Source: Escherichia phage PSK8. From it: 44,592 nucleotides of DNA. A program made the translations under genes and the position numbers. Under the pieces are notes generated by a model. It was given only the letters and a program-made list of their open reading frames with translations. It was not told the origin of the DNA and did no database searches. Of the stretch, positions 23,880 through 24,420 are shown in pieces. The stretch's first letter is position 1; each line of letters opens with the position of its first letter. The stretch lies in the sequence record PP541515.1; one strand, 5' to 3'.

Positions 23880-24420
23880 GATATAGGCGTGTGTGGGGTG
23901 TCTCGGCCTCGGCCTCGCCGGGATGTCCCCGTATGGGTCGCTAGGCGGTTGGCTTGGGAATTGGGCGAGGCTGGTCCGTCTTCGACGGGTAGGCCGAGGC
24001 TTACCTTGTACTCGCTTAGTGGTACACAAGGAGAACGCCTAGGAAGCGCTAGGGCACGCCTTAGTATTGGACAAGGTGATTGCCTTAGTGAAGCCTCTTA
24101 GTGCATTCCTGAGGCCATTCAGGGCGTTTATGGGCTATTGACAGGGTGGGCGGGTGTGGGCTATCTGTTCGTTTCGTTCACTCCGCTTGCGCTACGTTCA
24201 CTCGCTCACGTGTACCTTAGGTTATTCCTTGATGGATAGCCTAGGTTGGCCTTAATTGATTACCTTAGTATCAACCTTAGTTCTTATCTTAGTAACAACT
24301 TAGTAGTGTACCTTAGTAAGTCTTAGTGTCTTCTCTTAGTGATTGCATAGCTAAAGCTATAAGATGCTAATAGGTCGCGGTCGGTAGACCGCTAAAGAAA
24401 GAGAAGAGTAATAAGATGCA
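23880..24420. other. Probable genome terminus region (terminal repeat and packaging-associated short repeats)
   Basis: Non-coding; GC-rich island 23886..24005, then arrays of CTTAGT motifs; lies between last late gene and first early promoter. Confidence 0.4.

Follow-up and report, generated by a model that had tools for sequence, protein, structure and literature searches.

A predicted concatemer junction, with a direct terminal repeat flanked by CTTAGT short repeats, in the SP6/K1E-like Escherichia phage PSK8

Genome context

The window analysed here, by which we mean the whole stretch of 44,592 nucleotides from Escherichia phage PSK8 (PP541515.1), begins and ends with the same 127 bases and is thus a circularised contig with 44,465 unique bases, in which the long ORFs all lie on the + strand. 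It shares ~90% identity across ~92% of its length with Vectrevirus genomes (e.g., K1E and mutPK1A2) and, judged by its sequence, PSK8 represents a new species within the SP6/K1-5/K1E group (Vectrevirus, Autographiviridae, Molineuxvirinae). The window carries 11 copies of the phage promoter ATTTACYGGACACTATAGAAG and codes for a phage RNA polymerase and a two-subunit terminase:

15329-15673, + strand: small terminase (PHROG terminase family; Pfam PF11123 DNA_Packaging_2, the T7 gp18 family)
15670-17571, + strand: large terminase (PHROG terminase family; Pfam PF22530 Terminase-T7_RNaseH-like)
19911..19931, + strand: final phage promoter before the junction, ATTTACCGGACACTATAGAAG, the next of the 11 promoters being only at 29875
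27157-29784: single-subunit RNA polymerase, T7-type (Pfam RNA_pol, RPOL_N)

The terminase is of the T7 type, with a gp18-like small and a gp19-like large subunit, as would go with a terminal repeat of the T7-supergroup kind, and the pair encoded at 15329-17571 is expected to provide the trans-acting enzymes that cut at the junction.

The non-coding gap between late and early genes

The region of interest lies in the non-coding gap that separates the last late gene from the early genes driven by host promoters, in a genome with all genes on one strand. Between 23670 and 24975 no family-matched ORF was found. An ORF of 31 aa at 23740-23835 does have a good ribosome-binding site; it had no PHROG match and no match to p62 of mutPK1A2, and its match to K1-5 gp49 was only marginal. 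Depending on whether this ORF is real, the gap measures 1.14 to 1.3 kb, in agreement with the ~1.1 kb of non-coding sequence that had been described between the late and early genes. An Rfam scan of 23500-25100 (E ≤ 1) returned no known RNA family. The features at the left of the gap, up to the start of the predicted repeat, together with the repeat itself, are as follows:

23682..23771, + strand: CTTAGT at 23682 and 23715 plus CTTAGG at 23703 and 23766, on the right-end side, upstream of the repeat
23862..23894, + strand: pre-repeat block AACCAAAGTCAAAATTTTGATATAGGCGTGTGT, ending 6 nt before the left end
23901..24163, + strand: predicted direct terminal repeat (DTR), 263 bp, 59% GC, placed by alignment to the exact DTRs of relatives
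23901..23921, + strand: left terminal sequence TCTCGGCCTCGGCCTCGCCGG, with a TCTC start as in T7
23927..23937, + strand: small inverted repeat CCCC-GTAT-GGG, ~27 nt from the left end
24015..24102, + strand: four CTTAGT copies inside the repeat (24015, 24060, 24084 and 24097)
24138..24163, + strand: conserved right terminal sequence TTGACAGGGTGGGCGGGTGTGGGCTA, with the mature right end after the final A

The gap also contains a GC-rich island at 23886..24005, which the preliminary description had singled out as unlike the rest of the genome. This holds: the island has 68.3% GC compared to 45.3% genome-wide and is the richest of the 120-bp windows sampled, the runner-up (~67.5%) being at 26671. 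The CGGCCT tandem units reported within it are likewise present, in TCTCGGCCTCGGCCTCGCCGG at 23901..23921, and Tandem Repeats Finder detects them as (CTCGGC) x2.7 at 23902-23917. The island makes up the left 105 bp, or about a third, of the predicted terminal repeat.

A predicted direct terminal repeat of 263 bp

The placement of the repeat comes from relatives whose GenBank records have exact repeats at both ends, namely K1E (288 bp), mutPK1A2 (286 bp), K1-5 (234 bp) and SP6 (174 bp). The first bases of all four DTRs align to position 23901 ±4 of the window, at TCTCGGCCTCGGCCTCGCCGG, and their last bases all align to 24163, at ...TTGACAGGGTGGGCGGGTGTGGGCTA; the candidate repeat is thus homologous, up to and including its two boundaries, to the exact repeats of relatives. 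The ends of other records fall at the same places. The records of K1E, fTuEco01 and KAW1A4500 start at what corresponds to window position 23901, and that of Mt1B1_P10, which has an annotated 267-bp repeat, starts at 23902, while the EC120 record ends at 24163 and the AAPEc6 record starts at 24164. As the fTuEco01 record is without a second copy of the repeat, homology and not measurement may have determined where it starts. Among relatives the left ends given in the records scatter by 0-4 nt inside a shared ...CAGCTCTCTCG... context, and in the record of UAB_Phi78 the repeat lies ~15 nt farther to the left and stops 10 nt earlier on the right when compared with the alignment to SP6.

On this evidence the physical ends of the genome very likely lie at 23901 (±4) and 24163, giving a DTR of 263 bp. 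The virion DNA would then be linear, running from about 23901 (TCTCGGCC...) to 24163 (...GTGGGCTA), and since it would start at the first of these positions and stop at the second, the segment 23901-24163 would occur at both of its ends. The repeat region is present as a single copy in the circularised contig, and the assembler probably fused two copies into one and circularised the genome. For the virion genome this predicts a length of 44,465 + 263 = 44,728 bp. The earlier proposals that the ends and a direct terminal repeat lie in this gap, and that circular assembly collapsed the repeat, are both supported, the former by the aligned DTR ends of relatives and the latter by the 127-bp end overlap together with the single repeat copy.

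That the contig closed into a circle would also be seen with a circularly permuted genome packaged by the headful mechanism, in which case there would be no fixed ends and the region would merely be intergenic regulatory sequence. We consider this extremely improbable, given that the terminase is of the T7 type and not of the P22/T4 type, that the exact and fixed terminal repeats of close relatives map here, and that the ends of an SP6-like phage, UAB_Phi78, have been demonstrated by Bal31 digestion and run-off sequencing to bear a short DTR (PMC4837284). Hardly any likelihood attaches, either, to the notion that the GC-rich island is coding (+ strand ORF 23889-24101 or - strand ORF 23583-24029): there are open frames of 70 and 148 aa, and hypothetical proteins are annotated here in some related records, but indels among relatives break the frame (a 22-nt insertion in K1E/mutPK1A2, large deletions in SP6/K1-5) and each of the two ORFs would run across the left end of the linear DNA.

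Conserved sequences at the ends of the repeat

Conservation within the repeat is concentrated at its two ends, the left 38 nt being 82% and the right 25 nt 90% identical to five relatives, compared with 68% for the middle. The right terminal sequence (24138..24163) has a mean identity of 90% to the five relatives, and GTGGGCTA closes the exact DTRs of all four references. Near the left end the element TCCCCATAGGG is kept in all SP6-like relatives and has a T7 counterpart, CCCCCATAGGGGG, at nt 26-38. A long conserved hairpin, formed by the left terminus with an inverted copy of it ~90 nt further in, was also considered; the terminal 24 nt were compared with the rest of the repeat in ten phages, and their complementarity did not consistently exceed that of shuffled sequences, so this candidate was rejected.

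Outside the repeat, the pre-repeat block includes a palindrome, TCAAAATTTTGA, at 23870-23881 and is nearly invariant among SP6, K1-5, K1E, mutPK1A2, Pm5460 (Proteus), phD2B (Lelliottia) and KPN7 (Klebsiella), with a 34-nt stretch that is 100% identical to the Proteus phage Pm5460. The 6 nt between the block and the predicted left end read GGGGTG here and CAGCTC in most relatives. The block may be a terminase recognition sequence or a determinant of the left cut.

A candidate pause signal at the right boundary

A sequence that matches a known transcriptional signal lies across the right edge of the repeat:

24162..24179, + strand: TATCTGTT followed by CGTTTCGTTC, a class II (HATCTGTT) pause/termination signal

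In the class II signals of T7-type RNA polymerases, ATCTGTT has an A, C or T before it and a T-rich stretch after it, and one such signal is located at the concatemer junction of T7. TATCTGTT at 24162-24169 fits the 8-nt HATCTGTT consensus in the transcribed orientation, and the sequence that follows (CGTTTCGTTC) is moderately T-rich. ATCTGTT occurs genome-wide once on the + strand and five times on the - strand, against ~4 expected per strand, so that the sole + strand copy is not significant by count alone and its weight lies in its position and invariance. The heptamer is invariant in SP6, K1-5, K1E, mutPK1A2, fTuEco01, Pm5460, UAB78 and phD2B, and together with its tail is 92% identical to five relatives, compared to only 34% for the next 30 nt. 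Not every phage of the subfamily has it: ATCTGTC is found in PP1 and KPN7, and ATCTATC in Era103.

For T7, pausing or termination 6-8 nt beyond the signal, and the need for it in maturation, are known from the literature. In T7 the paused polymerase interacts with gp18/gp19, which starts maturation (PMC3276506), and PacB is recognised by the gp18 small terminase while gp19 cuts at PacC (PMC9860248). By analogy, TATCTGTT may act as a pause signal for the phage's own polymerase. No terminator-like site was found on the + strand between the promoter at 19911 and 24163, and late transcripts on a concatemer should therefore reach this signal. A phage promoter beside the repeat, the counterpart of T7 phiOR/phiOL, was not found within 3 mismatches from 19931 to 29875.

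Short repeats within and around the terminal repeat

The gap is crowded with short repeats, for which about 20 copies of (C)CTTAGT(G/A) spread over 23685..24930 had been claimed. Between 23682 and 24925 there are 17 exact copies of CTTAGT on the + strand and none on the - strand, whereas the other 43 kb of the window has nine on the + strand and 20 on the - strand; from this outside rate 0.27 copies would be expected (Poisson P = 4e-25). With five one-mismatch variants that retain the TTAG core (23703, 23766, 23842, 24216 and 24945) the total is 22, close to the original figure. The copies are densest where the preliminary description had put them (24215..24345), and the dense array is here mapped to 24216-24341. 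The features to the right of the repeat are:

24216..24341, + strand: dense periodic array of seven exact CTTAGT plus degenerate copies in one orientation, ~12 bp period
24347..24392, + strand: conserved two-hairpin module (hairpin 1 at 24347-24360, hairpin 2 at 24377-24392)
24484..24566, + strand: CTTAGT at 24484, 24551 and 24561, the last two abutting the -35 hexamer of the early promoter
24568..24596, + strand: predicted host sigma-70 early promoter, TTGACA, 17 nt, TACATT (10/12 matches)
24904..24915, + strand: boxA-like GCTCTTTAACAA in the early leader, with a second copy at 25533-25544

The exact copies of the dense array start at 24264, 24276, 24288, 24299, 24312, 24322 and 24335 (spacing 12, 12, 11, 13, 10 and 13), in register with the arrays of SP6, K1-5 and K1E. 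The copies at 23682..23771 are matched at equivalent places in K1E, K1-5, SP6, mutPK1A2 and Pm5460, and those inside the terminal repeat have counterparts both in relatives and in T7. CTTAGT is the commonest junction hexamer in Vectrevirus, Zindervirus (SP6), Acadevirus (Pm5460) and Axomammavirus (PP1), and these genera share three locations for the copies, upstream of the repeat, inside it, and in a dense array ~100 bp to its right. Other phages have the same layout built from another motif: CATGATG in phD2B, CATAGTGC in KPN7 and CCTAAAG in T7. In T7, CTAAAG copies lie to the left of, inside and to the right of the 160-bp repeat (at -105 and -76; 18, 42 and 61; and 176..333 relative to it), which upholds, as far as array layout is concerned, the analogy with T7 that had been suggested. 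PSK8 thus has the pattern of a T7-like array, i.e. at least 10 copies of a 6-7-bp unit in one orientation to the left, inside and right of the repeat with a dense period of 12-13 bp, without the motif of T7 itself, CTAAAG being found just twice nearby. The arrays are analogous to those of T7 in layout; it is uncertain whether the motif descends from that of T7, though ACCT(T/A)A.. is shared.

The two-hairpin module that follows the dense array is 88% identical to five relatives. In hairpin 1, 94% of the cells of the alignment of nine phages are paired, compared with 15-39% in slid controls, and in four of the six pairs both partners have changed; hairpin 2 is a perfect 6-7-bp stem found in the same place in four different, unrelated sequence versions. 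The stretch between the hairpins begins with a near-invariant AAGATGC (GATTC in phD2B), which occurs a second time at 24413, and ends with a semi-conserved A(A/T)TAGGT. Neither a sigma-70 promoter nor a phage promoter could be convincingly placed across the module. The TTGACA at 24138, which is invariant, and the block that follows the array were also assessed as sigma-70 promoters, and neither had an acceptable -10 at the right spacing. A homologue of the early promoter sequence at 24568..24596 is present in phD2B. The boxA-like 12-mer, which we take to be the rrn antitermination boxA, recurs at nt 813 of T7 and in every SP6-like left end compared.

What the arrays may do

The arrays would most likely serve as a series of binding sites for a phage protein active at the junction. 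The turnover of the motif points to a reader that is encoded by the phage and can co-evolve, for which an oligomer of the small terminase is the obvious candidate; the small terminase is our best guess at the bound protein, albeit a tentative one. Its identity to the window's protein is 77% in SP6, 74% in Pm5460 and 63% in phD2B, values that follow overall divergence and cannot separate the hypotheses for the arrays. More broadly, and somewhat more doubtfully, the arrays could be a conserved cis element of the T7 supergroup that provides a landing pad of ~12 bp period for an oligomeric phage protein, e.g. the ring of the small terminase, with the motif turning over (CTTAGT, CATAGTG, CATGATG, CCTAAAG) while the layout stays fixed, and with the two-hairpin module belonging to the same left-end control region. 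A literature search found no paper that shows a function for the short-repeat arrays of T7 or SP6, and the action in concatemer processing that the preliminary description ascribed to those of T7 is an assumption. Such short repeats were reportedly noted already when T7 was first sequenced.

A role in transcription, with the terminal repeat still located here and the arrays serving as sites for an early-transcription regulator or for host RNA polymerase at the entering end of the genome, is the strongest competitor and in our view unlikely. The copies at 24551 and 24561 immediately adjoin the -35 of the predicted early promoter, the CATGATG motif of phD2B overlaps the -35 of the homologous promoter, T7 has CTTAAAG beside the -35 of A1, and the dense array is situated just upstream of the conserved hairpin module, where there may be a transcript 5' end. 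[quoted passage not shown]

It is quite improbable that the arrays are iteron-like elements of a replication origin at the left end. Direct repeats in a single orientation with regular spacing would suit such elements, the predicted repeat of KPN7 has seven DnaA-box-like 9-mers (4/7 are exactly TGTGGATAA), and a secondary origin is located near the left end of T7. Iterons, however, would measure 17-22 bp and be accompanied by a neighbouring initiator gene and an AT-rich unwinding element. The unit here is 6-7 bp at a 12-bp period, no gene for an initiator lies nearby, and the DNA on either side, at 41% GC, is AT-rich to a mild degree only. The window contains a single weak DnaA-like site, at 24830, and origins in the T7 group are promoter-dependent.

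Less probable still are neutral products of slippage or duplication, for which short and near-tandem units might be taken as a sign: in the dense array the motif columns are 95% conserved compared to 71% for the spacer columns, the copies remain in register between the Salmonella phage SP6 and E. coli phages, the layout has been rebuilt with different motifs in other lineages, and the strand bias is complete, all of which argues that the arrays are under selection as motifs and are functional.

Comparison with known junctions

The DTRs of SP6, K1-5, K1E and mutPK1A2 are homologous to that of the window from end to end, and its 263 bp fall within their range of 174-288 bp. In common with this group, the window has the pre-repeat block, the TCTCG(G/C)CCTCG(G/C)CCTCGCCGG start, the TCCCC.TA.GGG element, the TTGACAG.GTG...GTGGGCTA end, ATCTGTT on the boundary, and the in-register CTTAGT array followed by the two-hairpin module. 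It differs in the middle of the repeat, which is ~68% identical to the group, and its terminal unit is CGGCCT, as in SP6, whereas K1E and K1-5 have CGCCCT.

The T7 junction has no overall sequence similarity to that of PSK8, but its parts come in the same order, with copies to the left of the repeat, inside it and densely to its right, in one orientation and with a 12-13-bp period (13 bp for the CCTAAAG array of T7 compared with ~12 bp for CTTAGT in the window). T7 also shares the TCTC left end, a CCCC.ATA.GGGG element ~25 nt in, and (C)TATCTGTT / CTATCTGTT at the right boundary, and both genomes have host promoters and boxA downstream. In T7 the right boundary reads CCCT/ATCTGTT (the slash marking the cut), and the cut relative to ATCTGTT comes 1 nt later in the window. 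The repeat of T7 is flanked by phiOR and phiOL, in contrast to the window, where no phage promoter was found on either side.

Proposed processing and implications

Taken as a whole, we regard 23860-24420 with considerable confidence as the concatemer junction of an SP6/K1E-like podophage. If its processing follows that of T7, replication would give head-to-tail concatemers with one copy of the repeat per junction, and late transcription by the phage RNA polymerase from 19911 would pass through the junction and pause at TATCTGTT. The T7-type terminase would be recruited and would cut at the two conserved boundary sequences, and the repeat would be duplicated in the course of this processing. 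The CTTAGT copies are on this view the SP6-group counterpart of the CCTAAAG arrays of T7.

For annotation, this would mean linearising the genome at 23901 and adding the repeat 23901-24163 at the right end, to give 44,728 bp, with no gene calls inside the repeat. Terminal repeats, a pause site at the junction and flanking short repeats are already established for T7- and SP6-like phages. Studies of how T7-type terminases find their sites could draw on the motif turnover within a fixed layout, the strongly conserved block before the repeat and the covariation in the hairpins; none of these is specific to this window. The function of the short repeats is a question for the whole T7 supergroup and not for this window alone; should the arrays indeed prove to be a landing pad for an oligomeric phage protein, the window would be a good comparative data point toward the function of the short repeats of T7.

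Predicted genome ends and the nearby hairpin module

The two termini of K1-5 and fTuEco01, GCCCTCGCCCTC on the left and GAGGGCGTGGGC on the right, are close to being reverse complements of each other, so that a similar G/C hexamer repeat is read inward from both genome ends, whereas the corresponding symmetry between positions 23901-23921 and 24145-24163, at the edges of the predicted terminal repeat of the window, is weaker. This end symmetry may reflect a two-fold symmetry in the terminase cut sites. The window contains a single weak DnaA-box-like site (at 24830), compared with seven in the Klebsiella phage KPN7. 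The KPN7 9-mers (1626-1785) share one orientation and a spacing of approximately 20 bp, four of the seven being exact TGTGGATAA, and they occupy the right half of the predicted KPN7 terminal repeat (1529-1801).

Directly to the right of the dense CTTAGT short-repeat array lies a further element:

24347-24392, plus 24413-24419: two-hairpin module

Both stems of the module (24347-24392) carry compensatory changes in a comparison across genera. The stretch between the hairpins starts with an almost invariant AAGATGC, which is replaced by GATTC in the Lelliottia phage phD2B, and has a semi-conserved A(A/T)TAGGT at its 3' end; a second AAGATGC follows 52 nt further on (24413-24419). An Rfam scan of 23500-25100 (E ≤ 1), which spans the module, gave no match.

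Early leader and palindromic elements

Two groups of short elements were found, one in the early leader and one with several members near phage promoters:

24904-24915 and 25533-25544: exact copies of GCTCTTTAACAA, early leader
10989, 29853, 30046, 30846, 32414, 33812 and 39039: the seven palindromes (G)TGTCTCACATGTGAGAC(A)

GCTCTTTAACAA has the sequence of boxA, the antitermination element of E. coli rrn. It is also present in T7 (nt 813) and, in one to three copies, in every SP6-like left end retrieved, and is thus a feature common to the T7 supergroup. Several of the palindromes are located 20-30 nt 5' of phage promoters (29853 before 29875, 30046 before 30071, 39039 before 39074). The family may represent terminators or RNA-processing hairpins.

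Contig ends and coding features

The exact duplication of positions 1-127 at 44466-44592 is an assembler k-mer overlap and not a biological feature, and these 127 bp should be trimmed ahead of annotation. Three coding regions deserve mention:

26500-27000: second compositional outlier, inside ORF 26209-27093
17666-18004, 18020-18307 and 18279-18992: neighbouring ORFs of one PHROG
21991-23514: tailspike (507 aa), the last large gene

The outlier has 56.6% GC (120-bp windows reach 67.5%) and an AT skew of +0.31, and its ORF, just 5' of the RNA polymerase gene, encodes a conserved phrog_4571 protein of unknown function. All three neighbouring ORFs match phrog_2725, which points to either tandem paralogues or a gene that has been split. 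Matches to tail-protein families are restricted to the N-terminal part of the tailspike, and its DNA is absent from most Vectrevirus genomes (12-59% coverage of window 19900-23900). Since this tailspike takes the place of the endosialidase of K1E and K1-5, the host receptor probably differs from theirs.
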